64,000 nt of DNA from Clostridia bacterium (GCA_018432615.1 JAHDSQ010000006.1:18432-82431); one strand, 5' to 3'; positions 1-16,388 are shown, counted from the stretch's first letter. The notes: generated from the sequence alone by a model not told the origin. Made by a program: numbers and translations.

Positions 1-534
1 TCTCTGTTGCCTCGTGACATTGTTGTTTTCAAGGCGGAGGATGTCTCGCGCGATTTTCATGCCAGGTATGATGCTAAAAGAAAAACGTATTGCTATACCA
101 TTTACAATGACAGCTGTTTGAGTCCCTTCTGGCGGCGCTATGCCTATCATGTGCTGGGAAAGTTGAAATTAGAGGAAATGTCGGCGGCTGCTCGTTTCTT
201 TTTGGGAGAACACGATTTCCGGGGGTTCTGTGCTAAGGACACGGCAGTAAAGGATTTCGTCAGAACGATTGATGAATGCAGCGTGAAAAAAGACGACGAG
301 ATCATCAGAATTATCGTCTCGGGTAACGGTTTTTTATATAATATGGTAAGAATCATGGCGGGAACCATCCTGGAGATAGGGAAAGGAAAGCGGAAGCCCC
401 AAGATGTAGCCTATCTTTTACAGAAAGGAGCACGGGAAGAAGCAGGAATGACCCTGCCTTCCTGCGGACTTTGTCTCCTAAAGGTTGAATACGCCAACCA
501 AGCCATTTCGTTGCAGGATAAAAAAACCTATTAA
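1..534 (+). CDS. truA: tRNA pseudouridine synthase A, C-terminal ~177 aa (5' end upstream of window)
   Basis: The frame is open to position 1. The translation (FHARYDAKRKTYCYTIYN ... GNGFLYNMVRIMAGT) fits the TruA family. The Firmicute truA-rplM-rpsI gene order follows. Confidence 0.85.
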   Translation, partial: SLLPRDIVVFKAEDVSRDFHARYDAKRKTYCYTIYNDSCLSPFWRRYAYHVLGKLKLEEMSAAARFFLGEHDFRGFCAKDTAVKDFVRTIDECSVKKDDEIIRIIVSGNGFLYNMVRIMAGTILEIGKGKRKPQDVAYLLQKGAREEAGMTLPSCGLCLLKVEYANQAISLQDKKTY

Positions 535-607
535 TAGTGTTGAACTAATGGAACTTAATGTTTATAATTTAAGGAGTCACAAAATAAGGTGAAAAAGGGA
601 GTTATCA

Positions 608-1030
608 GTGATGTTTAAAAAAATCATGGTTGCTGTAGACGGCTCAGAAAATTCTTATTTGGCGGTTGATAACGCAGTGGGTATGGCCAGCTTAAACAAT
701 GGGAAAGTCGATGTTATCAGTGTAATCCCTCAGAATATGCATGTCTGGTCTGATAGCTCAAATTCGGAGTATCTAAACTATAGAAAGAAATATTATAAGG
801 ACATCCACTCGAAAATCGCAGAAAAAATGAAAAAGGCCGGTGTTGAATACACGTCAATAATTAAGAATGGACATATCGGTTCAATGATTTGTGAAGAGGC
901 GGAAAAACTTGGCGTGGACGTTATTGTTATTGGCAGCCGAGGCTTAAGTAACGTCAGTAGGGTCATACTGGGAAGTGTGAGCAGTTATGTAGCGGCGAGT
1001 GCTAAATGTTCGGTCCTTATTGTCAAGTAG
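608..1030 (+). CDS. Universal stress protein (UspA family)
   Basis: 140 aa. It has the N-terminal KIMVAVDGSENS motif and the C-terminal VIGSRGLS..LGSVS....A.CSVLIV nucleotide-binding motif typical of UspA. A GGGAG SD lies upstream. ATG at 611 is an equally possible start. Confidence 0.8.
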   Translation: MMFKKIMVAVDGSENSYLAVDNAVGMASLNNGKVDVISVIPQNMHVWSDSSNSEYLNYRKKYYKDIHSKIAEKMKKAGVEYTSIIKNGHIGSMICEEAEKLGVDVIVIGSRGLSNVSRVILGSVSSYVAASAKCSVLIVK

Positions 1031-1100
1031 GATATTGGAAAGGTTGCGAGTAGTATCAGAAACACATGTGAGCACAGTTGCCGCGTGAACGCGGTTGTCC

Positions 1101-1129
1101 TTGACACGTCAGGCGGCGTGTATTAAAAT
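1101..1129 (+). promoter_or_regulatory. Sigma-A-like promoter for rplM-rpsI (TTGACA-17 nt-TAAAAT), followed by a ~90 nt untranslated leader
   Basis: TTGACA at 1101-1106 and TAAAAT at 1124-1129 have 17-nt spacing. The leader at 1135-1218 could be an L13-type autoregulatory leader, but I cannot verify its fold. Confidence 0.4.
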
Positions 1130-1218
1130 ACTTGCATGGGTTTTATTCAGGTTATTTGTTGATTCCACCAGCCCCGGGATCAATCGATATAAACAAAATG
1201 TGTAGGAGGGAACTGAAA

Positions 1219-1653
1219 TTGCGTACCTTCATGGCGAAGGCCCAGGATATTCAACGCAAGTGGTATGTTATCGATGCAAGCGAAAAAACCTTGGGTCGTT
1301 TAGCAACAGAGGCTGCGTCATTACTGCGTGGCAAACATAAGCCTGTATTCACTCCCCATGTTGATACAGGGGATTATGTTATTATCATTAACGCTGAAAA
1401 GATAGTGCTGACAGGAAAGAAGCTTCAGCAAAAGGAATACATCAGGCATAGTCGTTACCCGGGTGGACTCAAAAGGATTAGCTACGGCGTCCTAATGAAA
1501 ACCAGGCCGGAGATTGTGGTGGAAAAGGCTGTTAAAGGGATGCTTCCCCGCAACAGACTTGGTAATGCTATGTACAAGAAACTTAAGGTTTATAGAGGAC
1601 CAGAACATCCCCATCAAGCTCAAAAACCCGAAGTATGGGAATTAAGGGGTTAA
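1219..1653 (+). CDS. rplM: 50S ribosomal protein L13
   Basis: The translation (M)[19 protein letters not shown]... is canonical L13. I chose the in-frame TTG at 1219 (AGGAGGG SD at 1204-1210, 8-nt spacing) over the track start at 1132, which adds a non-homologous 29-aa extension. Confidence 0.95.
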
Positions 1654-1671
1654 GGGAAGGGAGGAAAGATA

Positions 1672-2067
1672 ATGGCACAAATGTTGCAATATGCAGCCAC
1701 TGGACGTCGTAAGACATCAGTAGCTAGAGTGCGTTTAATGCCCGGTGAAGGTAAGGTTGTTGTTAACCAGACGCCTTTAGCGGAATATTTTGGCAAGAAA
1801 ACCTTAGAAATGATTGTTAAGCAGCCGTTGGTTCTGACTGATACGGAGAGCCGTTTTGACGTTATTGCTAAAGTCCATGGCGGCGGTATTACAGGTCAGG
1901 CTGGGGCAATCCGCCTGGGGATAGCGAGAGCACTTTTAAAGGCGGATGCCGAAATGAGGCCCCTTCTTAAGCGTGCCGGTTTCCTAACAAGGGATCCTCG
2001 GATGAAAGAGCGTAAGAAGTATGGCTTAAAGGGTGCACGTCGTGCTCCACAGTTTTCCAAGAGATAG
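1672..2067 (+). CDS. rpsI: 30S ribosomal protein S9
   Basis: 131 aa. It contains [12 protein letters not shown] ... [19 protein letters not shown] ... [25 protein letters not shown], the canonical S9 sequence. Confidence 0.97.
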
Positions 2068-2096
2068 TATTTGTAGTCAGCTTATTAAGGCAGTAA

Positions 2097-2130
2097 AGCG
2101 TCGGGTGGGATATCCATCCGGTGCTTTTTT
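2097..2130 (+). terminator. Rho-independent terminator of rplM-rpsI
   Basis: A 12-bp stem (AGCGTCGGGTGG / CCATCCGGTGCT, 3 G-U pairs) with loop GATAT is followed by a T6 run. Confidence 0.75.
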
Positions 2131-2166
2131 ACATAAAGACAAAATCCATGTAAAGAGGAGACAAAT

Positions 2167-2241
2167 ATGGGGCAAGCCACTTTTGACGATTTTATGAAAC
2201 TGGATATTAGGGTAGGCGAAGTGATAAAAGCAGAGGTATAA
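2167..2241 (+). pseudogene. 24-codon remnant resembling the N-terminus of a CsaA/EMAP-type tRNA-binding domain protein
   Basis: ATG at 2167 gives MGQATFDDFMKLDIRVGEVIKAEV then a stop. The FxKLDIRVGxVxxAE pattern is the start of the tRNA-binding OB-fold family (about 110 aa when intact). Here it is truncated after 24 aa. Confidence 0.45.
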
Positions 2242-2322
2242 ATTAGGATAGAATTCACTGTCATAGCGCAGTCCTTTGATTAATATTCTTCTAACAGGAA
2301 ATTATTCAGAGGAGTTGAATAA

Positions 2323-3078
2323 ATGCAGAAATTAATGAAGCGCCTTACCATATGGGTGGTTATATTAACGGTGGCTGTAGGGAGTGTTGGTTTATTGCAA
2401 CTTTGGCAAGAAAAACAGGAATTAGCGGTTATTAAGGCAATGTCATGGGCCGTGGCCGGACGGAGGTTTGTCATAGATCCCGGTCATGGGGGAGAAGATC
2501 CCGGGAAAATGAGCCCCACGGGCGTTATGGAAAAGGATATTAACCTGGCGATCGCCAAAAAGCTTTCCGCGGTTATCGCTGCGGGCGGAGGTCAGGTTAA
2601 ACTTACCCGCGATTCGGATATTGCGTTGAGTGATAATGAGGGTACGATAAGGGAGCGGAAAACGGCGGATTTAAAAAACAGGGCAAAAATGGCGCAAAAT
2701 GAGGTGGCTGATATTTATTTGTCCGTTCATTGTAACGCTTTTCCCGAAAGCCGTTGGTCAGGAGCGCAAACATTTTATTCTCCTGCGGTCGATGGCAGCA
2801 AGGAACTGGCCATCTGTATTCAAGAGGAATTAACGTCGCACTTAGCCAATACCAAAAGAAAGGCTCTGCCTGATACGTCTTCTTTAATATTCAAAGAAGC
2901 GAAAATACCGATTGTTAATGTTGAAGTAGGATTTCTGTCAAACGAGCGTGAAGAAAGAATGCTTCAAGATGCCGCGTATCAAGATAAAATATGTTGGGCC
3001 GTTTATGCCGGTATAGTAAGATTCTTGGCCGATTACGGGGAGGAATACAAACCTGTCGTGAAGAAGGTCGGCAAATGA
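2323..3078 (+). CDS. cwlD: Germination-specific N-acetylmuramoyl-L-alanine amidase CwlD
   Basis: It has an N-terminal TM anchor and an Amidase_3 core (VIDPGHGGEDPG ... YLSVHCNAF ... VNVEVGFLSN). Its position downstream of rplM-rpsI matches Bacillus. Confidence 0.85.
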   Translation: MQKLMKRLTIWVVILTVAVGSVGLLQLWQEKQELAVIKAMSWAVAGRRFVIDPGHGGEDPGKMSPTGVMEKDINLAIAKKLSAVIAAGGGQVKLTRDSDIALSDNEGTIRERKTADLKNRAKMAQNEVADIYLSVHCNAFPESRWSGAQTFYSPAVDGSKELAICIQEELTSHLANTKRKALPDTSSLIFKEAKIPIVNVEVGFLSNEREERMLQDAAYQDKICWAVYAGIVRFLADYGEEYKPVVKKVGK

Positions 3079-3257
3079 TTCGACAAAAAAGGAGAAGATA
3101 TGCAAATAAAGAACTTTACAAACAGGCAGAAATTACATTATTATAGATATAACAGACCATATATGTCCCCTTTTTGTGGTAACATTTCGAAAATAAATAT
3201 AAAGATTGTGATAACCTTTCGATGAGTCCAAGAAAAAAGTAGGGGGGATGTTAAAAC

Positions 3258-3710
3258 ATGCAGATTCCGTTGTTAGGTTGGTTATTACAAGGGATACCGG
3301 AAACATTCGCATTAACGTATTTAGTAGTTAACTTAGGGTCAAAAGAGGTTTCTTGGGAACCAGTTATTAAGATTGGGGCGATTATGTCGATAGCAGTTTA
3401 TATAACACGTCTGTTGCCGTTTATGCCCGGGGTACATAGCATTATTTCCATTTTTGTGTTTTCGCTTGTTACTACGAATGTAACCTCTTTTAGTTTGATG
3501 AAATCTATTGTTTGCAGTACCGTAGGAATCATTGCTTTGATATTATGCGAATTTATCGTTAACGCTCTTTTGATTATGTTAGGAATAGTATCTGTTGAGC
3601 AAATAAATAGCAGTGTGGCAATCTGGATTATTACCGGTTATCCTCAGGTCATCATGCTCTTTATTCTAGGGGTAGTAGTAAATAAAAAGGGTATAGTCTT
3701 AATGGAGTAA
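3258..3710 (+). CDS. Polytopic membrane protein of unknown function (4-5 predicted TM helices)
   Basis: 150 aa and almost entirely hydrophobic segments. A GGGGGG SD precedes the ATG. It ends 28 nt before agrB. I recognise no family. Confidence 0.6.
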   Translation: MQIPLLGWLLQGIPETFALTYLVVNLGSKEVSWEPVIKIGAIMSIAVYITRLLPFMPGVHSIISIFVFSLVTTNVTSFSLMKSIVCSTVGIIALILCEFIVNALLIMLGIVSVEQINSSVAIWIITGYPQVIMLFILGVVVNKKGIVLME

Positions 3711-3738
3711 GCAATTATAATCTAATGGAGATAAAGAC

Positions 3739-4323
3739 ATGCCGTATTCACCTTTTAGTACACGGGTCAGCGGTTATTTAGCCCGTGAGCTTAAGTTAGA
3801 CAATGAAAAAAAAGAGATATTGGCATATGCCCTTGAAAATGTTATTTTCACAACAGGCGGCTTTATTTTAATCATGGCTGTCGGTTATATTTTAGGGGTG
3901 CCTAAAGAGACTTTCTGTGCGGCAATTGCCGGAGCAATCCTCAGAAAGTTCAGCGGAGGAGCTCATAGCAAAACTGCTCTCAGGTGTATGCTGGTTGGGG
4001 CTTTGGCTTATCCGCCGGTCGCTTTTCTGGCCAGGTACTTTTTTGTATTGCTAGGTGGTACAAGTCCTTATTATGCCATCTTGGCTTTTTGTTCAGTAGG
4101 CTCTTTTTTGATTGTGGCACGGTATGCGCCGGTTGATTCGAAGGGAAAACCTATTGTAGCGGAGGACTTTAGGCGGAAACTAAGGCATGGTTCTGTAGTT
4201 ACGGTCTTGTTGTTCATAGCTATTGCTTGGTTAAACATGACTAACAGTATAGGCAGTTCAATAATCAGCGGTATTGTTATCCAGTCAATAAGTCTATTGC
4301 CATTTCAAAATGCTGGGAGGTGA
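3739..4323 (+). CDS. agrB: AgrB-family autoinducing-peptide processing membrane endopeptidase
   Basis: 194 aa and polytopic. GGAHSKTALRC has the same His-to-Cys spacing (H+7) as S. aureus AgrB H77/C84 (HGAHAPSSFWC). YAPVDSKGKPI matches YAPAATKKKPI. Confidence 0.85.
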   Translation: MPYSPFSTRVSGYLARELKLDNEKKEILAYALENVIFTTGGFILIMAVGYILGVPKETFCAAIAGAILRKFSGGAHSKTALRCMLVGALAYPPVAFLARYFFVLLGGTSPYYAILAFCSVGSFLIVARYAPVDSKGKPIVAEDFRRKLRHGSVVTVLLFIAIAWLNMTNSIGSSIISGIVIQSISLLPFQNAGR

Positions 4324-4328
4324 GTTTT

Positions 4329-4460
4329 ATGTCCAGAGCAAAATACGTTTTGTTGACAATGGTATCAACCGTGCTTTTCTTTATCGCCACTACTAGCTCA
4401 GTTTTTGCATGCTGGTGTTGGAGATACCAACCGGAGACACCAAAAAGTCTTATTAAGTAA
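4329..4460 (+). CDS. agrD: AgrD-like autoinducing peptide precursor (43 aa, below the ORF-track size cutoff)
   Basis: ATG lies 5 nt after the agrB stop. The translation is MSRAKYVLLTMVSTVLFFIATTSSVFACWCWRYQPETPKSLIK. It has a hydrophobic N-terminal helix, a Cys-containing core, and a C-terminal E-T-P-K-S-L tail aligning with S. aureus AgrD E-V-P-K-E-L. Confidence 0.75.
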   Translation: MSRAKYVLLTMVSTVLFFIATTSSVFACWCWRYQPETPKSLIK

Positions 4461-4463
4461 AAC

Positions 4464-4499
4464 GTGAGGTGGTTTTTTATTCCACCTCATTGTGGTTTT
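4464..4499 (+). terminator. Hairpin / weak terminator after agrD
   Basis: A 9-bp stem (GTGAGGTGG / CCACCTCAT) with a 9-nt U-rich loop is followed by TGTGGTTTT. The T tract is weak, so it may only attenuate read-through into the GGDEF gene. Confidence 0.45.
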
Positions 4500-4513
4500 A
4501 GGGGAGAATTGCA

Positions 4514-6154
4514 GTGAAAAATGTTGAAAAATGCGAAAACCATAAAAAAGAAGAATACATAGTTTTCCTGCAGGCCATATTTCTTCTCCTGGCAGGTATT
4601 TTAATGACCAGGGTGTGGAAGACCAATGGCGGTTTTTTCTACGAATTATACCGCAATGTGGCATTTTTATTGTTGCCTATCGTCGGGCTCATATCGGTAA
4701 AGATTTTTGCCGCAGCTAAAAAGGGATGGGCCGAAAAAAAGGTCAACGATTATGTAAATATAGTTTACCTTATAGTTACTGTACCGTTGTTGATTTTTGA
4801 GGACGAAAGTTTTTTTAAAGTCCTTTTATTACTGCCGGTGATGGTGGCTGCTTTACAATACGGAGCAAGATATGGGTTTAAGTGGGCACTGTTTTCAACA
4901 CTTGGTTTGATTATTATTACAGTATTCCAGGGAATGCCCCAAATAGAGGTGTTTGTTCTCATCTTGGGGGTTATCTGGATGTTTGCTTGGCTTTTGGGGA
5001 AAATGTCGGAAGCGGAGCTAGAAAGCAGAGAAAAACTTAAGATCCAGGCCAGCGTAGACGGAATGACGGGGCTTCTTAATCATCGCAGCTTTTATGCGTA
5101 TTTGGAAGAGTGTTTTGATGAGGCTGTGAAGAACAAGAACAGCCTGTCCTTAATCATGTTGGATGTGGATTTTTTTAAATATTACAATGATACGTATGGA
5201 CACAGAAAAGGAGACGAAGTATTAATAGAAATCGCTCGGCTGATAAAAAAAGCAGTAGAGGAGAAAGGCGAATGCTTTCGTTACGGCGGAGACGAGTTTG
5301 CCGTTCTTATTCCGGGAGGAGAAGGACAGGAGGCCTATGCGATAGGTAGGACTATTTGCGAAAGTATTGGTGATACCTCTTTTGAAGGGTTAAATATTCT
5401 TCCGGGAGGGAAACTCAGCGTTTCGGTAGGGGTAGCCAGTTATCCCGAGCATACCAACAAGAAGGAAGCGCTGTTGGAAAAGGCTGATGAAGCCCTTTAC
5501 AGGGCAAAATATACAAATAACAGCAAGGTAGAGATGTATTATTCGGTTTTCGAAGAAATCAGCAATTTGCTGGAGGGTAAGGAAAAGGATGTTTTAAATT
5601 CAATGCGTACTTTGCTGATGTTTATTAATGCTAAGGACCATTATACCTATGGACATTCTGAGAGAGTAATGAATTATGCTATGCAAATTGGCAGAAAAAT
5701 GGCCCTGTGGGAATGGGAAGTACAAGAATTAATGGCGGGTGCCCTTCTGCATGACGTGGGAAAGGTTGAGCTTTCTCGGGAGGTTTTGAATAAATCCGAC
5801 AGTTTAACCGAAGAGGAATGGGAAGGAATAAGACAGCATCCGGTTTGGGGCGCCGATATCATTAGACCGATTTCTGCGTTTAAGAATGTTGTAGATATAA
5901 TACTGTACCACCATGAAAATTACGATGGCTCCGGTTATCCTGACGGGCTTAAGGGTAAGGATATACCCTTGGGGGCCAGAATACTGAGGGTAGTCGATAG
6001 TTTCGATGCCATGACGACAAATAGGCCATATAAGAAAGGGTTGTCCGTCGACAAGGCGGCGGATGAAATAAAGTCGCTCTCCAATGTTTTATATGATCCT
6101 GAAGTGGTGGAGACCTTTTTGGAGTATCTTAAGGAAATAGGGATCTTAGTCTAG
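4514..6154 (+). CDS. Membrane-bound bifunctional c-di-GMP protein: ~6-TM N-terminal domain + GGDEF diguanylate cyclase + HD-GYP phosphodiesterase
   Basis: The N-terminal ~170 aa carry six hydrophobic segments. The GGDEF domain reads DGMTGLLNHRSF ... FRYGGDEFAV. The HD-GYP domain reads HSERV ... LLHDVGK ... HHENYDGSGYPDGLKG. Confidence 0.9.
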   Translation: MKNVEKCENHKKEEYIVFLQAIFLLLAGILMTRVWKTNGGFFYELYRNVAFLLLPIVGLISVKIFAAAKKGWAEKKVNDYVNIVYLIVTVPLLIFEDESFFKVLLLLPVMVAALQYGARYGFKWALFSTLGLIIITVFQGMPQIEVFVLILGVIWMFAWLLGKMSEAELESREKLKIQASVDGMTGLLNHRSFYAYLEECFDEAVKNKNSLSLIMLDVDFFKYYNDTYGHRKGDEVLIEIARLIKKAVEEKGECFRYGGDEFAVLIPGGEGQEAYAIGRTICESIGDTSFEGLNILPGGKLSVSVGVASYPEHTNKKEALLEKADEALYRAKYTNNSKVEMYYSVFEEISNLLEGKEKDVLNSMRTLLMFINAKDHYTYGHSERVMNYAMQIGRKMALWEWEVQELMAGALLHDVGKVELSREVLNKSDSLTEEEWEGIRQHPVWGADIIRPISAFKNVVDIILYHHENYDGSGYPDGLKGKDIPLGARILRVVDSFDAMTTNRPYKKGLSVDKAADEIKSLSNVLYDPEVVETFLEYLKEIGILV

Positions 6155-6239
6155 GATATCGAACAGTTAAGGGATATAATAAAGGAAACTTGGTGATGAT
6201 TGAAATCAAGAAAGGTTAAAGGAAGGAGGATGAAGCCGA

Positions 6240-7574
6240 ATGCTGGAGTTGGTAGCACTCATGCCTCATCCGCCGGCGATCGTACCGGAGGTGGGAGGTG
6301 ACGAGAGCCGTGTTATTTCTCTAACGGCACAAAAGATGGGGGCTTTGGCACGTGAAATCAAAAGCATTGCACCTGAATTGATAGTTGTCGTTACACCTCA
6401 TGGGAATGTCTTCAGTGATGCCGTAACCATAACCTTGACGGACGTGTTAAGGGGTAATTTAGGAGCCTTTGGTGCACCTCATATCGGAGTGGAATATCCA
6501 CTTGATAAGGAGGCCGCTGAGGCTATTATTGTTTTTAGCCGGGATAAACGAGCTTATTGTGTAGGTCTTGAGGAGAAAATGCTGAAGAAATTTAGCCTGT
6601 CCGAAGAACTGGATCATGGGGCGGTAGTTCCTTTACTCTTCATAAAAGAAGCCGGATGGCGGGGGAGTTTACTGACTGTAAACATTGGTCTGTTGCCGTA
6701 TGAAGAATTATATGAATTCGGGAGCGGGCTTGCACAGGCTTTAGCAGGTCTTAACAGGCGTTGGGTGCTTCTTGTGAGTGGAGATATGTCACACTGTCTT
6801 TCGTACGGGGCACCGGGAGGATATTCGCCTCAGGGGGCCGTTTTTGATGGAATAATCAGGGACTTTGTTAATAATCCCGATCCATATAAAATAATGCAAA
6901 TGGATGAGCAGATTATAAATAAGGCAGGGGAGTGCGGCTTACGTCCTTTGATTATCGGGATGGGGGCCTTAGACGGTTTTGAAATCAAAGGTGAGGAGTT
7001 ATCGTATGAAGGTCCGTTTGGAGTGGGATATTTAGTGGCAAAGTTCATACCTGGGAAAAGAAAAACCGAATCGGAGCTGGTAAGTCTAGCCAGAGCAAGT
7101 ATTGAGTATTATCTTGAAAACGGTTCGTATTTGAAACCGCCTGTCCTAAAAGAGGAGTATGGAGAAGACAACGGAGGGGTCTTTGTTTCTTTGAAGAAGA
7201 ACTTTAATTTGCGCGGTTGTATCGGAACTATTGAACGTGTACAAAATAGTCTGGCCGAGGAGGTAATTCATAATGCGGTTGCGGCAGCCATAAACGACCC
7301 TCGCTTTGAACCGCTTATGCTTCAAGAATTGAAGAACCTGGAAATATCTGTGGACGTTCTGAATGCGCCTGAACCGGTCGCGGAATTGAGCGAATTAGAT
7401 CCTCAAGTGTATGGAGTAATAGTGACGCAGGGCGCTCGAAAAGGCCTGCTGCTACCGGCTTTGGAAGGCGTAAAGACCCCTGAAGAACAGTTGGATATTG
7501 CCTTGGAGAAGGCAGGAATTGCTTCCGGAGAAAAATACAAGATTGAAAGATTCCGGGTGACCCGGCATACTTAA
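6240..7574 (+). CDS. Fusion protein: LigB/Memo-superfamily (class III extradiol dioxygenase-like) N-domain + AMMECR1 C-domain (AmmeMemoRadiSam B/A-type)
   Basis: The N-terminus (LMPHPPAIVPEVGG ... TPHGN ... SGDMSHCL) is LigB/Memo-like. The C-terminal ~170 aa (GVFVSLKKNFNLRGCIGT ... DPRF.P ... GLLLP) is the AMMECR1 signature. Confidence 0.85.
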   Translation: MLELVALMPHPPAIVPEVGGDESRVISLTAQKMGALAREIKSIAPELIVVVTPHGNVFSDAVTITLTDVLRGNLGAFGAPHIGVEYPLDKEAAEAIIVFSRDKRAYCVGLEEKMLKKFSLSEELDHGAVVPLLFIKEAGWRGSLLTVNIGLLPYEELYEFGSGLAQALAGLNRRWVLLVSGDMSHCLSYGAPGGYSPQGAVFDGIIRDFVNNPDPYKIMQMDEQIINKAGECGLRPLIIGMGALDGFEIKGEELSYEGPFGVGYLVAKFIPGKRKTESELVSLARASIEYYLENGSYLKPPVLKEEYGEDNGGVFVSLKKNFNLRGCIGTIERVQNSLAEEVIHNAVAAAINDPRFEPLMLQELKNLEISVDVLNAPEPVAELSELDPQVYGVIVTQGARKGLLLPALEGVKTPEEQLDIALEKAGIASGEKYKIERFRVTRHT

Positions 7575-7590
7575 TAGGAGGCTGGTAGAA

Positions 7591-8457
7591 TTGCATATTG
7601 CCTCTTTTTGGTCGCAGGAGGACAGTGATAATAACGACGTACGGTGCCGGTTATGCCCTCACTTGTGTCGCATAACCTCCGGGGGATGGGGGAGGTGCAG
7701 AACAAGGTATAATGAGGATGCGAGATTGTATGCCATGAATTACGGGCGAGTGACCTCCTTGGCTCTTGATGATATTGAAAAGAAGCCTTTAAGAATGTAT
7801 AAGCCGGGGACGAAGGTATTGTCAATTGGCACGTTTGGCTGCAACTTCGCCTGCGGCTTTTGTCAGAACTGGACGATTGCCCAGGGGGATAGGTCTGTCG
7901 TTACAAGATATGTATCGGCTGAAGAAGCTGTCAAGAAGGCCTTGGAACTTGTAGAATACGGCAATATAGGGTTGGCCTACACCTATTCAGAACCGTCGGT
8001 GTGGTACGAGTACGTTTTTGATACCGCCAAAAGGGCGAAAGAAGCTGGTTTGAAAAACATTTTGGTCACAAACGGCTATCTCAATCCCGATCCGTTAAAA
8101 AAGCTTTTGCCGTATATTGATGCGGTTAATCTTGATATAAAGGCCTTTACTTCCGATTTTTACCGCAAGGTGTGCGGAGGCAGTCTGGAGCCTGTTCTGA
8201 AAGCGGCGAGGCTTTTTGCAAAGGAATGCCATTTGGAGATTACCAATCTGATTATCCCCTCAATGAATGATTCTTCAGAGGAAATAAGTACCCTTTCCGA
8301 GTGGATAGCTAGTATTGATAAAAGCATTCCGCTGCATTTAACCAGGTATTTTCCTCAATATAAGTTTACTTTGCCTTCTACTTCCCCGGAAACATTGGTG
8401 AGGGCAAAAAAGGTTGCGGAGAAAAGCTTAAAGTACGTATTCTTAGGCAATATATAA
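7591..8457 (+). CDS. AmmeMemoRadiSam-system radical SAM enzyme (PflA-like activase family)
   Basis: TTG start with an AGGAGG SD at 7576-7581. The radical SAM motif is CNFACGFCQNW. An N-terminal extra Cys cluster reads CRLCPHLCRITSGGWGRC. It lies 16 nt downstream of the AMMECR1 fusion gene. Confidence 0.85.
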   Translation: MHIASFWSQEDSDNNDVRCRLCPHLCRITSGGWGRCRTRYNEDARLYAMNYGRVTSLALDDIEKKPLRMYKPGTKVLSIGTFGCNFACGFCQNWTIAQGDRSVVTRYVSAEEAVKKALELVEYGNIGLAYTYSEPSVWYEYVFDTAKRAKEAGLKNILVTNGYLNPDPLKKLLPYIDAVNLDIKAFTSDFYRKVCGGSLEPVLKAARLFAKECHLEITNLIIPSMNDSSEEISTLSEWIASIDKSIPLHLTRYFPQYKFTLPSTSPETLVRAKKVAEKSLKYVFLGNI

Positions 8458-8599
8458 GCATTACCAATATTTTGTTTGCCTTGACAAGCAGGATGTGGTA
8501 GTTTTATGGAGAAAAACAGTAGCAATATTTGCTTTTATCGGTAAACATCGGATTTCTGTCTAGTCAGTCAGACAAATAAACAAGTTAGGATAGGTTGCT

Positions 8600-9643
8600 A
8601 TGCGTGCTATTGAAGTTGAGAGTTTAAAAGAAGATATGAGGCTTGCCAGAACGATTTTTGATGACAGCGGGCGTGTTTTGTTGAATTCCGGTACTAAACT
8701 AACGGAACGATACATTAAAAGGCTCATGGATTTAGGGATACCTTTTATCTACGTTGAAGACGAGATCGTCGGTCCGATTGAATGCGAGGACATCATTGAT
8801 GACAGGGTAAGGATACAGACAATAAAAGCCTTGAAGAAGGTTGTTGAAACAGCCAAGATGCACGAAGAAATTGACCTTCTTCCGATCAGTGGAATGGTCA
8901 ACGCGATACTTGACGATTTAAAAGGTGTTCCCAATATGTTGATGCAGTTGTTGGATATCAGGACCGCCAATACGTATGTATATAATCATTCGGTGGCTGT
9001 ATGCGTTCTAAGTATAATGACCGGGATGTCATTGGAACTGGACGACTTAAAGATTAAGCTGCTTGGTATGGGTGCGCTGTTGCATGATATTGGCAAATCA
9101 CTCAGCGAGGGTCCGGAACACACGATCCATGGTTTTGAAATACTGCGCAACACCAAAGCGTTGAATGTAGTTGCTGCTCATGTTGCTTATCAGCACCATG
9201 AGCGTTATGACGGCGAAGGTTTTCCCCGTAAGCTGAAGGGAGAGGACATTCATCTGTTTGGGGCGATTACAGGTATCGCAAACCTGTACGATAATCTTGT
9301 CTCTCATCCGGATGGGGATAAACGGCTTTACCCTTATCAAGCCCTAGAAAAAATTGTTGCCGAAAGCGGACGTGGTTTTCATCCTGAAGTTGTCAAAGCC
9401 TTTTGCCGCAATATTGCACCTTATCCGGTCGGAACTGCGGTTAAATTAAATAACGGTGCGGTAGGAGTAGTGGTATCGGTGCCTAAAAATTTTAGCACTC
9501 GGCCTGTGATAAAATTAGTTTCCAGTGAGGTGGGGATACTAATGAAGGATTTTCCCGAAATAGATTTACTGAAGGAGAAAACTTTATTCATAAACGAAAT
9601 ACTAAGCGAAAAAGATCGTCGGGATATTGCAGTTTTAAAGTAA
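8600..9643 (+). CDS. HD-GYP domain c-di-GMP phosphodiesterase (cytoplasmic, N-terminal accessory domain)
   Basis: 347 aa. It contains HSVAV ... LLHDIGK ... HHERYDGEGFPRKLKGEDI. Confidence 0.85.
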   Translation: MRAIEVESLKEDMRLARTIFDDSGRVLLNSGTKLTERYIKRLMDLGIPFIYVEDEIVGPIECEDIIDDRVRIQTIKALKKVVETAKMHEEIDLLPISGMVNAILDDLKGVPNMLMQLLDIRTANTYVYNHSVAVCVLSIMTGMSLELDDLKIKLLGMGALLHDIGKSLSEGPEHTIHGFEILRNTKALNVVAAHVAYQHHERYDGEGFPRKLKGEDIHLFGAITGIANLYDNLVSHPDGDKRLYPYQALEKIVAESGRGFHPEVVKAFCRNIAPYPVGTAVKLNNGAVGVVVSVPKNFSTRPVIKLVSSEVGILMKDFPEIDLLKEKTLFINEILSEKDRRDIAVLK

Positions 9644-9676
9644 TAGGATATACAGCAGCTATAGATTGAGACTTTT

Positions 9677-9716
9677 GCCTGCGCCTTGAAAGGTCTTGCG
9701 CAGGCATAATTAATTT
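9677..9716 (+). terminator. Terminator after the HD-GYP gene
   Basis: An 8-bp GC-rich stem (GCCTGCGC / GCGCAGGC, 9677-9705) is followed by an A/T-rich tract ending in TTTT. Confidence 0.55.
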
Positions 9717-9726
9717 TAGTACAGTA

Positions 9727-9744
9727 TTGCATATTTATGCATAA
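9727..9744. promoter_or_regulatory. ARG-box-like palindrome (candidate ArgR/AhrC operator) overlapping the arg operon promoter
   Basis: TTGCATATTTATGCATAA has a perfect 6-2-6 palindrome, TGCATA-TT-TATGCA. It resembles the ARG box TNTGAATWWWWATTCANW with symmetric A-to-C and T-to-G changes. TATTATAAT (-10-like) lies 6 nt downstream, and argC starts at 9791. Confidence 0.5.
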
Positions 9745-9790
9745 TGATGTATTATAATAAAAAGCATTACCAAGACGAAGAGGTGAGAAT

Positions 9791-10831
9791 GTGGTAAAAG
9801 CAAGTATTTTAGGTGCGACAGGATACACGGGACAAGAACTGGCCAGGATGCTGCTCATGCATTCCCAGGTGGAACTGATAGGAATGGGTTCCAATACTTA
9901 TGCGGGAAAGAAATATTCAAGCGTGTATCCTCATTTTGAAAGCGCTCTGGATTTAAAATGTTCGAATATGCAGGATGATGCGTTATTCGAGAAAGCTGAT
10001 GTAATATTTTTGGCCTTGCCCCACGGCTTAAGCGTTCCATACGCCGAAAAGGCCCTCGCTCTAGGAAAAAAGGTTGTTGACCTGGGGGCGGATTTCCGTT
10101 TGAAATCAGCGGATATCTATCAAAAATGGTATAAAACAGAAGCGGCAAGACCGAAACTTTTGGGGAAGGCGGTTTATGGTTTGCCCGAATTGTATCGTGA
10201 TGAAATTAAAGGGACAGATTTGGTGGCAAATCCCGGTTGTTATCCTACTACAGCCATTTTAGGGTTGGCTCCCCTGCTGAAGAACGGGTTGATCGACAAA
10301 AAGAGCATCGTAATCGACAGCAAATCGGGTGTCAGCGGTGCCGGGCGTAGTTTAAAGGTAGGCTCTCTTTATAGTGAAGCAAACGAAGATTTTCAGGCAT
10401 ATGGATTCCCCTGCCACCGTCATGCTCCGGAGATAGAGCAGGAACTGGGGAATCTTGCGGGTGAGGAAATAGCCGTTACCTTCGTGCCGCATTTGGTGCC
10501 GATGACCAGGGGTATGCTCAGCACGATTTATGCTTCTTTGGTAAAAGAAACAGACACTCGGAGATTAGAAGATTTATATAGGGAATTTTATCAAGATGAG
10601 GTGTTTGTAAGAGTCCTGCCCGGTGGGCGTCAACCTCATACTAAGTGGGTGCTCGGTACGAATAATTGTGACCTGGGGGTCAATGTGGACGAAAGAACCG
10701 GACGGGTAACTGTTGTGTCTGTAATCGATAATTTGGTGAAAGGCGCTTCAGGTCAGGCGATACAGAATATGAATATCATGTGCGGCTATAAGGAAGAACA
10801 GGGTTTAAATAGGGTTGCTTTGTATCCGTGA
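9791..10831 (+). CDS. argC: N-acetyl-gamma-glutamyl-phosphate reductase
   Basis: GTG start. It has ILGATGYTGQEL at the N-terminus and the active-site region VANPGCYPT. Confidence 0.95.
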   Translation: MVKASILGATGYTGQELARMLLMHSQVELIGMGSNTYAGKKYSSVYPHFESALDLKCSNMQDDALFEKADVIFLALPHGLSVPYAEKALALGKKVVDLGADFRLKSADIYQKWYKTEAARPKLLGKAVYGLPELYRDEIKGTDLVANPGCYPTTAILGLAPLLKNGLIDKKSIVIDSKSGVSGAGRSLKVGSLYSEANEDFQAYGFPCHRHAPEIEQELGNLAGEEIAVTFVPHLVPMTRGMLSTIYASLVKETDTRRLEDLYREFYQDEVFVRVLPGGRQPHTKWVLGTNNCDLGVNVDERTGRVTVVSVIDNLVKGASGQAIQNMNIMCGYKEEQGLNRVALYP

Positions 10832-10855
10832 TGAGATAAAGGTAAGGATGGATGA

Positions 10856-12073
10856 ATGATGAACATCAAAACAATAGAAAAAGGTGGAGTTACGACACCG
10901 CAGGGTTTTATAGCAGGGGTTGCCAAGTCGGGGATAAAAAAAATGGGCAGGTATGATTTGGCCTTACTTCTTTCACAGGTGCCGGCTTCTGCGGTTGCGG
11001 TGTTTACGACAAATAAATTTCAGGCCGCGCCCGTCGTTTTATCAAAGCGGCATCTGCAATCCGGTGTTTGTAAAGGTGTGGTGGTAAACAGTGGTTGTGC
11101 CAATGCTTGTACAGGCGAAAAGGGCTATCAGGACGCCGTTTCTATGGCAATAGCGGCTGCGGAAGTGTCCGGTTGCAGTACCGAAGAAATCGTGACAGCC
11201 TCCACAGGCGTTATCGGAGTACATTTGCCAATGGAGAAAATCATCGGGGGCATCAAAGAGGCAGGAGCCAATCTTACCGCAGCAAACGGACATTTAGCGG
11301 CTCAAGCCATCATGACAACGGATACCTTTCCGAAAGAAACCGCCGTGCAGTTTGAGTTAGACGGAAAAACGATAAACATCGGTGCGATGGCTAAAGGGTC
11401 GGGTATGATTCATCCGAACATGGCTACCATGCTGGCCTTTATTACTACCGATGCGGCCATAGCCCCGGCTGTTCTGCAAAAGGCCTTGAACTGGGCAAAC
11501 AAAGAATCATTTGCTATGATTAGTGTGGACGGTGATACCAGCACAAACGACAGTTTATTCGTCTTGGCTAACGGGTTGGCTGAAAACGCTAAAATAGAAG
11601 AGGACAACAGTACGGCATATCATACCTTCAGAGACGCCTTGACTGAGGTCTGTCTTAATCTGGCGAAGATGATAGCTAAGGACGGCGAGGGTGCCACCAA
11701 ACTCCTGGAAGTTCGAGTGATAAATGCCGTAAGTTGGGAAGATGCGGCAAGAGGGGCGAAAAGTATTGTTGCTTCCAGTCTGGTAAAGACGGCTGCTTTC
11801 GGAGAGGATGCCAATTGGGGTCGGATTATATGTGCCTTAGGTTATTCCGGAGCCGAATTTGTTCCCGAATTGGTTGATGTTTATCTCGGGGATGTTAAGG
11901 TGGCGGAAAATGGCTGTGGGCTAGATTTCGACGAAGATCGTGCAGCGGAGGTTTTAAATAAGGATGCAGTTGTGATTAAGGTTGACCTGCAGCAAGGGGA
12001 GTATGAGGCTACGGCCTGGGGTTGTGATTTGACCTACGATTACGTTAAGATAAACGGAGATTACCGAACGTAG
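10856..12073 (+). CDS. argJ: Bifunctional ornithine acetyltransferase / N-acetylglutamate synthase
   Basis: 405 aa. The autoprocessing site context ATMLAFITTDA and overall ArgJ-family similarity support the call. Confidence 0.95.
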   Translation: MMNIKTIEKGGVTTPQGFIAGVAKSGIKKMGRYDLALLLSQVPASAVAVFTTNKFQAAPVVLSKRHLQSGVCKGVVVNSGCANACTGEKGYQDAVSMAIAAAEVSGCSTEEIVTASTGVIGVHLPMEKIIGGIKEAGANLTAANGHLAAQAIMTTDTFPKETAVQFELDGKTINIGAMAKGSGMIHPNMATMLAFITTDAAIAPAVLQKALNWANKESFAMISVDGDTSTNDSLFVLANGLAENAKIEEDNSTAYHTFRDALTEVCLNLAKMIAKDGEGATKLLEVRVINAVSWEDAARGAKSIVASSLVKTAAFGEDANWGRIICALGYSGAEFVPELVDVYLGDVKVAENGCGLDFDEDRAAEVLNKDAVVIKVDLQQGEYEATAWGCDLTYDYVKINGDYRT

Positions 12074-12111: not shown

Positions 12112-12969
12112 ATGTTGACGGTTCTGGAAAAAGCCAATGTCTTAACAGAGGCTCTACCATATATCCAATCCTTTGCCGGTAAAACTATTGTCGTCAAATT
12201 TGGCGGTCATGCCATGGTTGATCCGAAATTGGAGGAAATGGTACTAAAAGATATCGTATTGATGAAACTGGTGGGTATGAATCCGGTGATAGTTCACGGC
12301 GGAGGGCCTTCCATCACCGAATGGCTTAAAAAAGTCGATATCCAGGCAAAGTTTATCGATGGTTTGAGGGTTACGGATGAAGCGACGATGGAAGTTGCGG
12401 AAATGGTCTTAGCCGGGAAAATAAATAAGGGATTGGTAAGTCAAATCAATCTTTATGGAGGCAAGGCCGTAGGGCTCTGTGGAAAAGACGGCGGGATGAT
12501 CCTGGCGGAGAAGAAAAAGTCAGAGCAGGATTTAGGCTTAGTGGGAGAAGTCACGGAGATAAATACCGGCATTTTATCAATCCTTTCGGCTGAGGGATAT
12601 ATTCCTGTCGTGGCACCTGTTGCGGCGGGAAAAGACGGAGAAACACTGAATATCAATGCGGATTATGTAGCCGGTGCCTTGGGGGGAGCGTTAAAAGCAT
12701 ACAAACTGGTGCTTTTGACAGATGTGGAGGGTATTTACCTTGATGAAAGATCCGAGTCGTTAGCCTCGCGTTTGAATGAGGTTGAGATAAGGCAACTGAT
12801 AGCAAAGGGTGTTATCAAGGGTGGCATGATCCCCAAGGTGGAAAGCTGTCTTGCGGCTTTGGGAAGCGGGGTCGAAAACATTCATATTGTTGATGGGAGA
12901 AAGCCTCATGCCCTTCTTTTAGAGATGTTTACCAAAGAGGGTATCGGCACTATGGTGGTGAAAGAATAG
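12112..12969 (+). CDS. argB: Acetylglutamate kinase
   Basis: 285 aa. It contains VVKFGGHAM ... VHGGGP ... NINADYVAG, the amino-acid kinase fold of ArgB. Confidence 0.95.
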   Translation: MLTVLEKANVLTEALPYIQSFAGKTIVVKFGGHAMVDPKLEEMVLKDIVLMKLVGMNPVIVHGGGPSITEWLKKVDIQAKFIDGLRVTDEATMEVAEMVLAGKINKGLVSQINLYGGKAVGLCGKDGGMILAEKKKSEQDLGLVGEVTEINTGILSILSAEGYIPVVAPVAAGKDGETLNINADYVAGALGGALKAYKLVLLTDVEGIYLDERSESLASRLNEVEIRQLIAKGVIKGGMIPKVESCLAALGSGVENIHIVDGRKPHALLLEMFTKEGIGTMVVKE

Positions 12970-12995
12970 CTTTTGTGAGAGGAAGGATAAAGACT

Positions 12996-14192: not shown

Positions 14193-14213
14193 ACTTTTCT
14201 ATGAAATATTGAA

Positions 14214-14254
14214 CCTCAAGATAGCATATGTATGACATATAGCTTATCTTGAGG
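14214..14254 (+). other. Imperfect 13-bp inverted repeat / hairpin between argD and the M20 gene
   Basis: CCTCAAGATAGC ... AGCTTATCTTGAGG. There is no clean T tract. The 3' arm overlaps the SD-like GAGGTG of the next gene. Confidence 0.4.
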
Positions 14255-14261
14255 TGACATT

Positions 14262-15431: not shown

Positions 15432-15437
15432 TAAGGG

Positions 15438-16370: not shown

Positions 16371-16388
16371 TAATTCAGGGAGGGAAAT

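Follow-up and report, generated by a model that had tools for sequence, protein, structure and literature searches.

A clostridial agrBD cassette linked to a membrane protein with predicted c-di-GMP-making and c-di-GMP-breaking domains

Results

A four-gene cassette with agrBD and a GGDEF-HD-GYP protein

The DNA analysed here, hereafter the window, is a 64 kb stretch (64,000 nt) of a Clostridia bacterium genome (GCA_018432615.1), in which four genes follow each other 5′ to 3′ on the + strand: smallTM, agrB, agrD and a gene encoding a 6TM-GGDEF-HD-GYP protein (the sensor). They are separated by 28 nt (smallTM/agrB), 5 nt (agrB/agrD) and 53 nt (agrD/sensor). The first gene, smallTM (3258..3710, + strand), encodes a polytopic membrane protein (150 aa) from a family without annotation, with four hydropathy segments above threshold and one less hydrophobic N-terminal segment. 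A candidate sigma-70-type promoter, TTTACA-18-TATTAT (3115..3144, + strand; 10/12 matches in a consensus scan), lies 114 nt upstream of smallTM; because sigma-70-like sites in the region do not exceed their count in shuffled sequences, it is a candidate only.

The second gene, agrB (3739..4323, + strand), encodes the membrane endopeptidase/cyclase for the AgrD precursor. Its product matches PF04647 over residues 8-186 of 194 aa (E=1e-38, 133 bits against a cut-off of 23) and carries the catalytic His76 (nt 3964-3966) and Cys83 (nt 3985-3987), seven residues apart in the motif GGAHSKTALRC and invariant in an alignment of 7 sequences. The third, agrD (4329..4460, + strand, ATG start), encodes the 43-aa autoinducing-peptide precursor MSRAKYVLLTMVSTVLFFIATTSSVFACWCWRYQPETPKSLIK, which matches TIGR04223 with 37.5 bits against a cut-off of 19. 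The ribosome-binding site GGGAGGTGA lies immediately upstream of the start, and an in-frame GTG at 4320 offers an alternative one. The precursor has a hydrophobic N-terminal leader, and nearly all of 88 AgrD-profile matches fit the pattern A-C-x4-(Y/H)QP(E/K)xPKxL. In this family the four positions following the Cys are hypervariable and their flanks conserved, as judged from a variability table, which is the signature of a specificity-bearing signal. Aligning the precursor with AgrD of the C. perfringens family, for which the AIP is given as [CLWFT] (PMC12312760), places the predicted ring at Cys28-Trp-Cys-Trp-Arg32 (4410..4424, + strand), and on this assignment AgrD would yield a thiolactone peptide.

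Directly 3′ of the agrD stop, folding revealed a stem-loop (4464..4490, + strand) with a 9-bp stem, GUGAGGUGG/CCACCUCAU, and a 9-nt loop. The 59-nt stretch holding it folds with -17.7 kcal/mol (z = -3.2), and a hairpin folds at the equivalent position in five related loci (L002, L012, L013, L016 and L070). A terminator scan did not report it because its loop exceeds 8 nt. We infer that it is probably a partial terminator that reduces read-through into the sensor gene.

The sensor gene (4514-6154, + strand; 546 aa) starts with a six-helix membrane input domain, which we call NTM (aa 1-174; 4514..5035, + strand). The AlphaFold model of this region, built on 44 sequences (pLDDT 87.5, pTM 0.79; a model from 5 sequences reached a pLDDT of 51 and could not be used), has helices at residues 2-36, 41-69, 79-94, 99-116, 118-139 and 144-188, joined on the outside by loops of only ~4 residues each. 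In the conservation profile TM1-3 are variable and TM4-6 conserved (K102, G117, G121, W159, G162 and E168). NTM is followed by a GGDEF diguanylate-cyclase domain (aa 175-338; 5036..5527, + strand; PF00990, E=2.5e-39) and an HD-GYP c-di-GMP phosphodiesterase domain (aa 339-546; 5528..6154, + strand; PF13487 (HD_5), E=1.4e-41). The catalytic motifs of both are present, namely the GGDEF active site (aa 258-262, nt 5285-5299) within RYGGDEF (aa 256-262), HDVGK (aa 413-417, nt 5750-5764) and HHENYDGSGYP (aa 466-476, nt 5909-5941), and they are widely kept in the family, GG(D/E)EF being intact in 43/51 members and the HD and GYP motifs in 49/51. Motif inspection of the sensor's GGDEF domain revealed no RxxD inhibitory I-site. 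With these intact motifs, the sensor is predicted to be an enzyme that both makes and breaks c-di-GMP.

A preceding sequence-only reading of this DNA had given coordinates and gaps for all four genes, which proved exact to the base. Its calls of a convincing AgrB with catalytic His and Cys, of a 43-aa AgrD-like precursor 5 nt further on, and of six N-terminal TM helices fused to intact GGDEF and HD-GYP domains are borne out by the profile matches, invariant residues, catalytic motifs and model described above. The same holds for its statement that no histidine kinase or regulator lies nearby: searches of the 64 kb window returned no kinase core (local HisKA/HATPase profile, E<=10) and no receiver domain (phmmer, E<=10), and the Pfam-annotated genes around smallTM, followed for 8.7 kb on its upstream side and 10 kb on its downstream side, include neither a kinase nor a regulator. 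The direct check for an AgrC-type GHKL core or LytTR covered about 15.5 kb. An autoinduction loop closed by a c-di-GMP riboswitch was considered and dropped, as Rfam searches gave no match in positions 1-12000 of the window (E<=1) and none at the gathering score in 9 related loci; no other obvious feedback element was seen in the locus.

Conservation of the cassette in Clostridia

The cassette recurs in roughly ninety related loci of Clostridia, and the idea that it is an oddity peculiar to the window's genome was rejected in favour of a widespread clostridial module. Approached from AgrB, a survey of 75 species-level genomes provided 69 assessable agrB genes; the next gene encodes a TM-GGDEF-HD-GYP protein in 45 cases, a histidine kinase in 17 and neither in 7. 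The reverse approach used the NTM domain alone as query and retrieved 56 metagenome loci; upstream of their GGDEF-type sensors lay agrD in 35/35 cases, agrB in 26/26 and smallTM in 19/19. The synteny of smallTM, agrB, agrD and the sensor gene is thus conserved from both sides, and the suspicion that the 150-aa protein belongs to the unit turned out to be right. Four sequence-distinct metagenomic AgrB relatives (46-50% identity) all lie in the same cassette (4/4); one of them has different flanking genes on the side visible in its contig, and another is represented by short contigs only. The family also takes in the agrBD1 locus of named species, the loci of C. botulinum ATCC 25763 and C. sporogenes (L070, L079) being exactly the window's cassette.

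Other arrangements were also found. Three loci have smallTM-agrBD without an adjacent sensor (L022, L025 and L142), the last of these on a C. beijerinckii plasmid and in the order agrB-smallTM-agrD. Eight have pairs of smallTM and an NTM-kinase without agrBD (L014, L070, L073, L079, L112, L119, L125 and L132), and in three the smallTM gene overlaps the start of a kinase gene (L047, L084 and L085). One related genome (L056) holds a classical AgrC-like kinase system together with a cassette-type system.

The membrane domain NTM and the smallTM protein

Judging from a profile search that gave 199 matches among 1.84 billion representatives, NTM is a distinct, small and specific 6TM family of ~200 cluster representatives. 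Two other searches reflect limits of method rather than absence: a word-indexed search with residues 1-178 of the sensor gave no matches and missed even the query itself, and a combined smallTM+NTM profile returned 5 proteins only. Among 61 near-full-length NTM proteins, 35 carry GGDEF (33-34 of them also HD-GYP) and 26 a kinase. Next to agrBD, too, NTM is found fused to PAS-HisKA-HATPase kinases, for example in C. botulinum and C. sporogenes, and to one GAF-kinase-receiver hybrid; the kinases on the agrBD2 side share size and domain order with the orphan kinases CBO0336 and CBO0340 (PMC11210211). When outputs change, it is the membrane domain and not the c-di-GMP domains that stays with agrBD, and this swapping points to NTM as the peptide-linked input module.

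The ~170-aa membrane domain had earlier been likened in size to the AgrC sensor module. The size agrees, but homology, and with it the candidate assignment of NTM as an AgrC-type sensor, found no support: hhalign gave a probability of 0.6% in a comparison of limited sensitivity, between a 55-sequence NTM profile and the N-terminal 210 aa of a single AgrC-like kinase (from L056). Hypervariability of NTM tracking the peptide ring was likewise not seen in close pairs; NTM of the window is 94% identical to that of L011, the rings being CWCWR and CFCWR, respectively. Against PF25323 (6TM_PilS), 15/55 NTM relatives match at E<1 (best 2.9e-4) and 6/61 NTM proteins at E<1e-4 (best 5.1e-7); the window's NTM has no match at E<=1 and most relatives fall below the Pfam cut-off. 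The best PDB match of the model is the 6TM diguanylate cyclase ImcA (8wcn), with a TM-score of 0.57 on the query, a Foldseek probability of 1.0, a non-significant E-value of 0.054 and 13% sequence identity.

For smallTM, 99 homologues adjoin agrB and/or NTM sensors, and no relatives were found in Pfam, NCBIfam or the PDB, nor in phage records. Conserved residues are E15 (QGIPE), R51, P54, G58 and H60 (RLLPFxPGVH), E98 and P129. A free-standing copy of NTM was rejected as an explanation of the protein (hhalign probability 0.2%). It is the fastest-diverging of the four cassette proteins, and at two loci with the identical ring CYVWA (L002 and L012) the smallTM proteins are 30% different. It is found alongside all sensor types, even kinases whose membrane part is just a 2-TM hairpin. 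The protein could be a co-receptor or a factor in peptide maturation or export.

Discussion

Building on the gene identities, motifs, fold model and conserved linkage established above, we think it rather probable that the cassette is a complete agr-type peptide module in which a c-di-GMP enzyme serves as the receptor arm and replaces the AgrC/AgrA two-component pair. In the mechanism that we propose, smallTM, agrB and agrD would be transcribed jointly as an operon, and AgrB would remove the C-terminal tail YQPETPKSLIK from AgrD and close the Cys28-Arg32 thiolactone, releasing the hydrophobic ring CWCWR, to which a short N-terminal tail may or may not be attached. The hairpin after agrD would let only some transcripts pass into the sensor gene. 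Since the sensor has hardly any exposed loops, its six-helix domain, possibly jointly with smallTM, would recognise the hydrophobic peptide inside the membrane, in the outer half. From there the signal would travel along the long helix joining TM6 to the GGDEF domain and alter how far c-di-GMP is made (GGDEF) or degraded (HD-GYP). Peptide binding by NTM, as well as the direction in which c-di-GMP would change, we infer from comparative genomics. Several observations count against this reading: NTM shows no detectable kinship to the AgrC sensor in the one comparison made, its external loops span only ~4 residues, it hardly differs between close relatives with different rings, smallTM is constant across sensor types, L056 also has a classical AgrC-like kinase, and the locus shows no c-di-GMP riboswitch or other obvious feedback element.

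The linkage thus suggests that a peptide quorum signal is turned straight into a second-messenger change, a shortcut that the sequence-only reading had already proposed. This proposal has gained from the conserved linkage and from the sharing of NTM with agrBD-side kinases, while the likeness of the membrane domain to the AgrC sensor does not extend beyond size. A broader version seems to us evenly balanced between right and wrong: that this is a clostridial agr family with a one-component receptor, in which the thiolactone peptide would be bound in the membrane by the 6TM-GGDEF-HD-GYP enzyme, aided by the previously unrecognised smallTM, and cell density written directly into c-di-GMP, while orphan PAS-kinases bearing the same input module would be the long-sought receptors for orphan agrBD loci, among them agrBD1 and agrBD2 of C. 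botulinum.

Because smallTM is kept with every sensor type, it could itself be the true binding subunit, relaying the signal inside the membrane to the adjoining sensor, in the manner of the accessory membrane proteins that serve intramembrane-sensing kinases; the 6TM domain would then be a coupling domain, with the c-di-GMP output unchanged. Its occurrence in almost every locus, whether the sensor input is 6TM, 2TM plus an external domain or a bare 2-TM hairpin, fits such a role, as do the three overlaps with kinase starts, the eight pairs with NTM-kinases that lack agrBD, the invariant intramembrane polar residues (E15, R51, H60 and E98) and the fast divergence. We nevertheless regard it as unlikely that smallTM is the real binder, given that the three sensorless smallTM-agrBD loci are a better fit to peptide production, that the pair sharing CYVWA has such different smallTM proteins, and that no structure or homologue points to a binding fold. 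As a peptide-binding partner of NTM, or a sharer in binding, smallTM may still take part in the receptor arm that we favour.

PilS monitors pilin in the membrane, and by analogy the 6TM domain might gauge the producer's own AgrD precursor, AgrB or smallTM, so that c-di-GMP would report secretion or processing load and not density. The faint but recurrent matches of NTM to the PilS-like family, its very short external loops and the hydrophobic AgrD leader, which would sit in the membrane, are all compatible with such self-monitoring. We consider it quite improbable, however, since a hypervariable ring between conserved flanks is a typical feature of signals that are secreted and carry specificity, since the window's protein lacks a PilS match, and since agrBD of this AgrD family gives diffusible signalling in C. 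perfringens, where an agrBD mutant is rescued by co-culture (PMC2706048). We also give little credence to the view that the GGDEF-HD-GYP protein responds to some other cue (the state of the membrane or a different ligand) and adjoins agrBD only for the sake of co-regulation, for instance by c-di-GMP controlling peptide production, with a kinase elsewhere (AgrC/AgrA or VirS/VirR-like) as the true receptor. The coexistence of classical and cassette-type systems in L056 accords with it; moreover, in C. perfringens an AgrD of the window's family is reported to act via the unlinked VirS/VirR, which makes a distant receptor possible. Yet co-regulation alone can hardly explain a linkage, seen from the sensor side, of 35/35 (agrD) and 26/26 (agrB) in distant Clostridia and varied chromosomal contexts, and it is the membrane domain, not the c-di-GMP domains, that stays with agrBD when the output is swapped. 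Receipt of the peptide by the 6TM domain accordingly stays our preferred reading.

Many Clostridia, including pathogens and industrial strains, have agrBD without agrCA, and what reads their peptide is an open question; reviews state the C. difficile Agr1 pathway as unknown and the agr-adjacent orphan kinases of C. botulinum as uncharacterised. The near-obligate two-way linkage nominates receptor candidates, namely the 6TM domain with or without smallTM, and C. sporogenes and C. botulinum Group I are tractable organisms with the same cassette. If the proposal is true, quorum sensing would be tied to the second-messenger network of motility, biofilm formation and sporulation in Firmicutes without a phosphorelay, and NTM and smallTM would define two new membrane protein families. 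Our literature search found no paper linking an agr peptide cassette to a c-di-GMP receptor, in line with the earlier remark that no characterised shortcut of this kind was known. To our knowledge, no other peptide-autoinducer receptor has a c-di-GMP output; this would be the first.

The cassette shares with staphylococcal-type agrBDCA an AgrB with catalytic His and Cys, a gene for a polytopic membrane receptor immediately 3′ of agrD, and the plan of AgrD itself (leader, Cys plus four residues, conserved acidic/proline tail, equal spacing). It differs in that the gene next to agrBD encodes GGDEF and HD-GYP domains in place of an AgrC-type kinase, that no receiver or AgrA-type regulator was found in the 64 kb or among annotated neighbours, that the membrane domain of the receptor shows no detectable likeness to that of AgrC, that the predicted output is c-di-GMP turnover, and that a conserved smallTM precedes agrB. 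With the orphan agrBD loci of C. perfringens and C. botulinum/C. sporogenes it shares the AgrD family, with the tail (Y/H)QP(E/K)xPKxL. The published receptor of such orphan loci is unlinked (VirS) or unknown, and we found no mention of a GGDEF-HD-GYP neighbour or of smallTM in the literature on them; in C. perfringens, two upstream hypothetical ORFs are co-transcribed with agrBD (PMC2706048).

Outside the agr systems, the Rpf systems resemble the proposed pathway in leading from a quorum signal to a c-di-GMP change. In Burkholderia the fatty-acid signal BDSF binds RpfR, a PAS-GGDEF-EAL protein and thus a receptor that is itself a c-di-GMP enzyme, and in Xanthomonas the kinase RpfC feeds the HD-GYP regulator RpfG. 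These are, however, proteobacterial systems with fatty-acid signals sensed by a cytoplasmic PAS domain or a kinase, whereas in the window, which comes from a member of the Firmicutes, the would-be signal is a thiolactone peptide of ribosomal origin that a 6TM domain would sense, with GGDEF plus HD-GYP as output. The PilS-like domain (PF25323) likewise places six N-terminal TM helices on signalling proteins, PilS being a pilin-responsive kinase of Proteobacteria. ImcA of Pseudomonas aeruginosa joins a dimeric 6TM domain, required for activity (PMC10904736), to GGDEF; it differs from the window's sensor in having no HD-GYP domain and in being controlled by the iron-sensing partner IsmP and not by a peptide.

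Gene content of the cassette

The region proved to be arranged as the sequence-only reading had described it, with four genes in succession on the + strand. A 150-aa polytopic membrane protein (smallTM; 3258-3710) comes first and is followed after 28 nt by agrB (3739-4323), after a further 5 nt by the 43-aa agrD (4329-4460, from an ATG with an in-frame GTG upstream at 4320) and, 53 nt beyond that, by a gene for a 546-aa protein (4514-6154) that we refer to as the sensor. Profile searches and intact motifs bore out the identities proposed for AgrB (PF04647, 133 bits against a cut-off of 23; catalytic His76 and Cys83 both present), AgrD (TIGR04223, 37.5 bits against 19) and the GGDEF (E = 2.5e-39) and HD-GYP-type HD_5 (E = 1.4e-41) domains of the sensor, the motifs of which lie at aa 258-262 (GGDEF), 413-417 (HDVGK) and 466-476 (HHENYDGSGYP). 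Motif inspection found no RxxD inhibitory site in the sensor, and profile searches returned no Pfam or NCBIfam match for smallTM. The claim that no kinase or regulator lies close by also held: there was no histidine kinase or response regulator among the Pfam-annotated neighbours, which cover 8.7 kb on the upstream and 10 kb on the downstream side of smallTM, and neither a kinase-core profile made from 16 kinases nor a receiver-domain search gave anything at E ≤ 10 across the 64 kb. Some clostridial agr systems are known to lack agrC and agrA (2025 primer).

Linkage seen from AgrB and from the sensor

A word-indexed homologue search returned only six AgrB relatives; run with window positions 4514-5047 it missed the query's own database entry, so that its negatives on TM-rich queries do not mean absence. 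All four sequence-distinct AgrB relatives at 46-50% identity were found in the order one or two smallTM genes, agrB, agrD and a GGDEF-HD-GYP gene of ~550 aa, one of them with another upstream flank (Nramp and an iron repressor), and in a 34% relative smallTM-agrB-agrD was followed by a PAS-HisKA-HATPase kinase. An AgrB-alignment scan of one genome per species then gave 75 loci from Peptococcaceae, Desulfosporosinus, Moorella, Desulfotomaculum, Desulfofundulus, Pelotomaculum, Syntrophomonadaceae and many Clostridium species, including C. botulinum ATCC 25763 and C. sporogenes. This sample covers the AgrB subfamily with the search pattern P[VI]DS[KPE][AG]KPI, and the gene after agrD was classed by profiles made from the window group. 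The six-helix membrane input domain at the sensor's N-terminus (NTM; aa 1-174) was fused to GGDEF-HD-GYP after agrD for 39 of 80 agrB genes; a further five had a GGDEF-HD-GYP protein with a more divergent membrane domain, one had NTM and GGDEF-HD-GYP as two split ORFs, eight an NTM-kinase, nine other kinases and seven neither sensor type, with the contig end too near for assessment in 11. The synteny that the sequence-only reading had proposed to look for in relatives is thus kept, a TM-GGDEF-HD-GYP gene following agrD in 45 of the 69 assessable agrB genes of this subfamily.

The reverse test is the more telling one, because agrB was not pre-selected. Here metagenome contigs were scanned with 22 aligned Clostridium-type NTM domains, yielding 56 loci, and only loci whose contig has room for the gene in question were counted. 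GGDEF-type sensors had agrD upstream in 35/35 cases, agrB upstream in 26/26 and smallTM nearby in 19/19; for kinase-type sensors the figures were 4/10, 3/10 and 9/10, respectively. The GGDEF-HD-GYP form of the sensor therefore occurs essentially only behind agrBD. We regard this as a real and widespread clostridial agr variant, whose dedicated 6TM input domain has GGDEF-HD-GYP as its commonest fusion partner, and the finding is more general than could be seen from the window's sequence.

The window's cassette recurs at agrBD1 in C. sporogenes and C. botulinum Group I. At the C. botulinum ATCC 25763 locus (L070, 792-10676), and likewise in the related loci L079, L073 and L090, it is part of a supercluster with two peptides, three sensors and three smallTM genes, in the order smallTM-agrB1-agrD1-NTM-GGDEF-HD-GYP, smallTM with an NTM-PAS-kinase, and smallTM-agrB2-agrD2 with an NTM-PAS-kinase. 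Both 592-aa proteins of the C. botulinum locus are PAS-HisKA-HATPase kinases by Pfam, with the size and the arrangement of domains listed for the '5 TM-PAS-HisKA-HATPase' orphan kinases CBO0336 and CBO0340, described as uncharacterised in a 2024 review (PMC11210211), according to which the AgrD1 pathway of C. difficile is likewise unknown. In locus L056 (2966-4849) an AgrC-like kinase (HATPase_c_5, SPOB_a) stands immediately before another, dissimilar AgrB, with a smallTM-agrBD-sensor cassette 3.7 kb further downstream, so that both system types occur in one genome. The sensor of L072 (8759-10283) consists of separate NTM and GGDEF-HD-GYP ORFs, whether through a frameshift, as a pseudogene or by sequencing error. 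In L004 (~4430-5880) the 5' half of agrD joins an inverted, 3'-truncated GGDEF-HD-GYP gene at a single junction, which may be either a real inversion or an assembly chimera.

A shared membrane input domain with exchangeable outputs

When 1.84 billion cluster representatives were searched exhaustively with the NTM profile, only 199 relatives came out at E ≤ 0.001, 104 of them at E ≤ 1e-10. Among 61 near-full-length NTM proteins, 35 carry GGDEF (33-34 of these HD-GYP too) and 26 carry HisKA/HATPase, often with PAS, in three cases with a receiver and in one with GAF; the sensor of locus L080 is a GAF-kinase-receiver hybrid by Pfam. A single membrane domain joined to different outputs, and in every case next to agrBD or smallTM, bears the classical hallmark of a shared ligand-input module. 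Pfam has no family for NTM, and no sequence relative was found in the PDB. Matches to 6TM_PilS were weak (15/55 at E < 1; 6/61 at E < 1e-4, best 5e-7), and a minority of members matched MASE1 and DUF4118 weakly. The likeness to the AgrC sensor module suggested from the sequence stands for size and position only; comparison with the AgrC-like sensor of L056, the single AgrC-like sequence used, showed no relationship (probability 0.6%).

The AlphaFold model of NTM, built on a 44-sequence alignment (pLDDT 87.5, pTM 0.79), has six helices (2-36, 41-69, 79-94, 99-116, 118-139 and 144-188), the last of which continues into the GGDEF domain. Judging from the helix order and the lysine-rich 70-78 loop, we read the model as placing outside three loops that would be only about four residues long each. 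Conservation falls mostly in TM4-TM6 (K102, G117, G121, W159, G162, E168), and TM1-TM3 are highly variable. Foldseek returned nothing from the PDB at E ≤ 0.001; its top match was ImcA (8wcn), a 6TM-GGDEF cyclase (E = 0.054, probability 1.0, TM-score 0.57), the 6TM domain of which is needed for ImcA activity (PMC10904736).

The outputs were surveyed in 51 GGDEF-HD-GYP proteins found across the fetched loci, of which almost every one is the sensor that follows agrD. An HD motif was present in 51/51 and the GYP motif in 49/51, the two exceptions being a truncated sensor and a second GGDEF-HD-GYP protein far from agrBD; GG(D/E)EF was intact in 43/51, replaced by GSDEF in 4/51 and absent from 4/51. 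This argues that the phosphodiesterase is the constant output, with the cyclase usually but not always kept. In the window sensor both predicted activities look intact. A ~135-aa insertion interrupts the GGDEF domain of the L014 sensor (5163-7235), in which the GGDEF motif is missing.

The predicted peptide

In the 88 AgrD sequences of the loci a hydrophobic leader is followed by A-C, then by four hypervariable positions and (Y/H)QP(E/K)xPKxL. In C. perfringens AgrD the ring [CLWFT] presumably lies directly before HQPEEPKSL, and alignment with it would place the thiolactone ring of the window peptide at Cys28-Trp-Cys-Trp-Arg32 (nt 4410-4424); the distance from Cys to the conserved PK is the same as in S. 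aureus AgrD-I. The C. perfringens peptide is listed as the five-residue thiolactone [CLWFT] (PMC12312760). Trp, Phe, Tyr, Leu and Ile abound in the rings of the family, consistent with intramembrane recognition by a sensor that exposes hardly any loop. Upstream of a full cassette, locus L023 has an additional smallTM-agrD pair (6204-6837) that lacks an agrB of its own, and the two rings are unlike (CGGWA and CAWFG).

C. botulinum AIP-1 is given in the 2025 primer as ACYW[CVYQP], with the ring starting at the second Cys. AgrD1 of L070 (1925-2059) ends in ...SSACYWCVYQPKEPKCLREE; since in the tabulated AgrD matches conservation of Cys is limited to the first one and the tail starts from (Y/H)QP, a ring [CYWCV] seems more likely than [CVYQP]. 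The window peptide, CWCWR, likewise holds two Cys.

The role of smallTM and alternative readings

We found 99 smallTM homologues, in one to three copies per locus, with the common motifs QGIPE and RLLPFxPGVH, a Glu within the membrane (E98) and a Pro close to residue 129; sequence comparisons showed no relationship to Pfam, PDB or NTM. Among the four proteins it diverges fastest: between the window and the related locus L011 smallTM stands at 83%, the others at 92-95%. A receptor-side role is suggested because smallTM is present with every sensor type, pairs with NTM-kinases that lack their own agrBD, and overlaps the kinase start in the order agrB-agrD-smallTM-kinase (L047 8823-11160, L084 8777-10671, L085 3337-5336); the L084 and L085 kinases have only two closely spaced TM segments (five in L047) and thereby resemble intramembrane-sensing kinases that depend on an accessory protein. 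A production-side role is suggested because smallTM is nearly always joined operon-style to agrB and occurs with agrBD without an adjacent sensor, as in L022, L025 and a C. beijerinckii plasmid (L142, NZ_CP107023.1). On that plasmid the order is agrB-smallTM-agrD (566-2032) with no sensor gene after it, and PLSDB's incomplete table lists no gene at the smallTM position. The protein could thus be a co-receptor or a maturation/export factor.

From the sequences we consider it probable, if by no great measure, that the sensor, by itself or together with smallTM, perceives the peptide and turns it directly into a change in c-di-GMP. That smallTM is itself the binding subunit seems unlikely, its company with every sensor type speaking for such a role and its operon-style union with agrB for the production side. 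We give still less credence to a membrane domain that senses the cell's own precursor pool, and equally little to a linkage of agrBD and sensor that is regulatory, with the true receptor elsewhere; the GGDEF-type sensors, as counted from the sensor side, had agrBD upstream throughout. A fatty-acid quorum signal is read by a c-di-GMP enzyme in RpfR, and the related RpfC/RpfG relay has an HD-GYP protein as its output; we know of no peptide autoinducer that is read by a c-di-GMP enzyme. The full-text literature searched did not tie agrBD to such an enzyme as receptor or neighbour, an older mention of neighbouring genes being possible.

Regulatory elements and flanking genes

The spacer after agrD holds a stem-loop on the + strand (4464-4490; 9-bp stem, 9-nt loop), and the 59-nt stretch containing it folds at -17.7 kcal/mol against -10.2 in shuffles (z = -3.2). 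A hairpin directly 3' of agrD is also found in five related loci (L002, L012, L013, L016, L070). It may act as a partial terminator, which would give a high ratio of agrBD to sensor. A promoter-like site lies at 3115-3144 (+), with such sites no more frequent in the region than in shuffles, and no riboswitch or other Rfam element was found in window positions 1-12000 or in nine related loci.

The window's exact proteins are present on NCBI and Logan contigs, and the nearest named genome is the MAG of Clostridia bacterium isolate SM3-B6.2 (JAHDQS010000002.1; AgrB 92% identical, same gene order). The cassette is flanked in this lineage on one side by rplM-rpsI-cwlD-like genes and on the other by a pair encoding a LigB/Memo-like-AMMECR1 fusion (6240-7574, +) and a radical-SAM protein (7591-8457, +), directly after the sensor gene. 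The pair also stands behind the cassette in L002, L007 and L009; since the other loci whose downstream side was inspected lack it, it is apparently lineage-specific synteny and no part of the module. A stand-alone 347-aa HD-GYP (HD_5) protein is encoded 2.4 kb downstream of the sensor (8600-9643, +), with counterparts of ~347-349 aa at 2.4-3.0 kb in L011, L012 and L013, and may belong to the same c-di-GMP circuit. In L002 a very large RHS/YD-repeat protein (>2000 aa; 12956-16576) follows the radical-SAM gene and replaces the HD-GYP and arginine-biosynthesis genes of the window.
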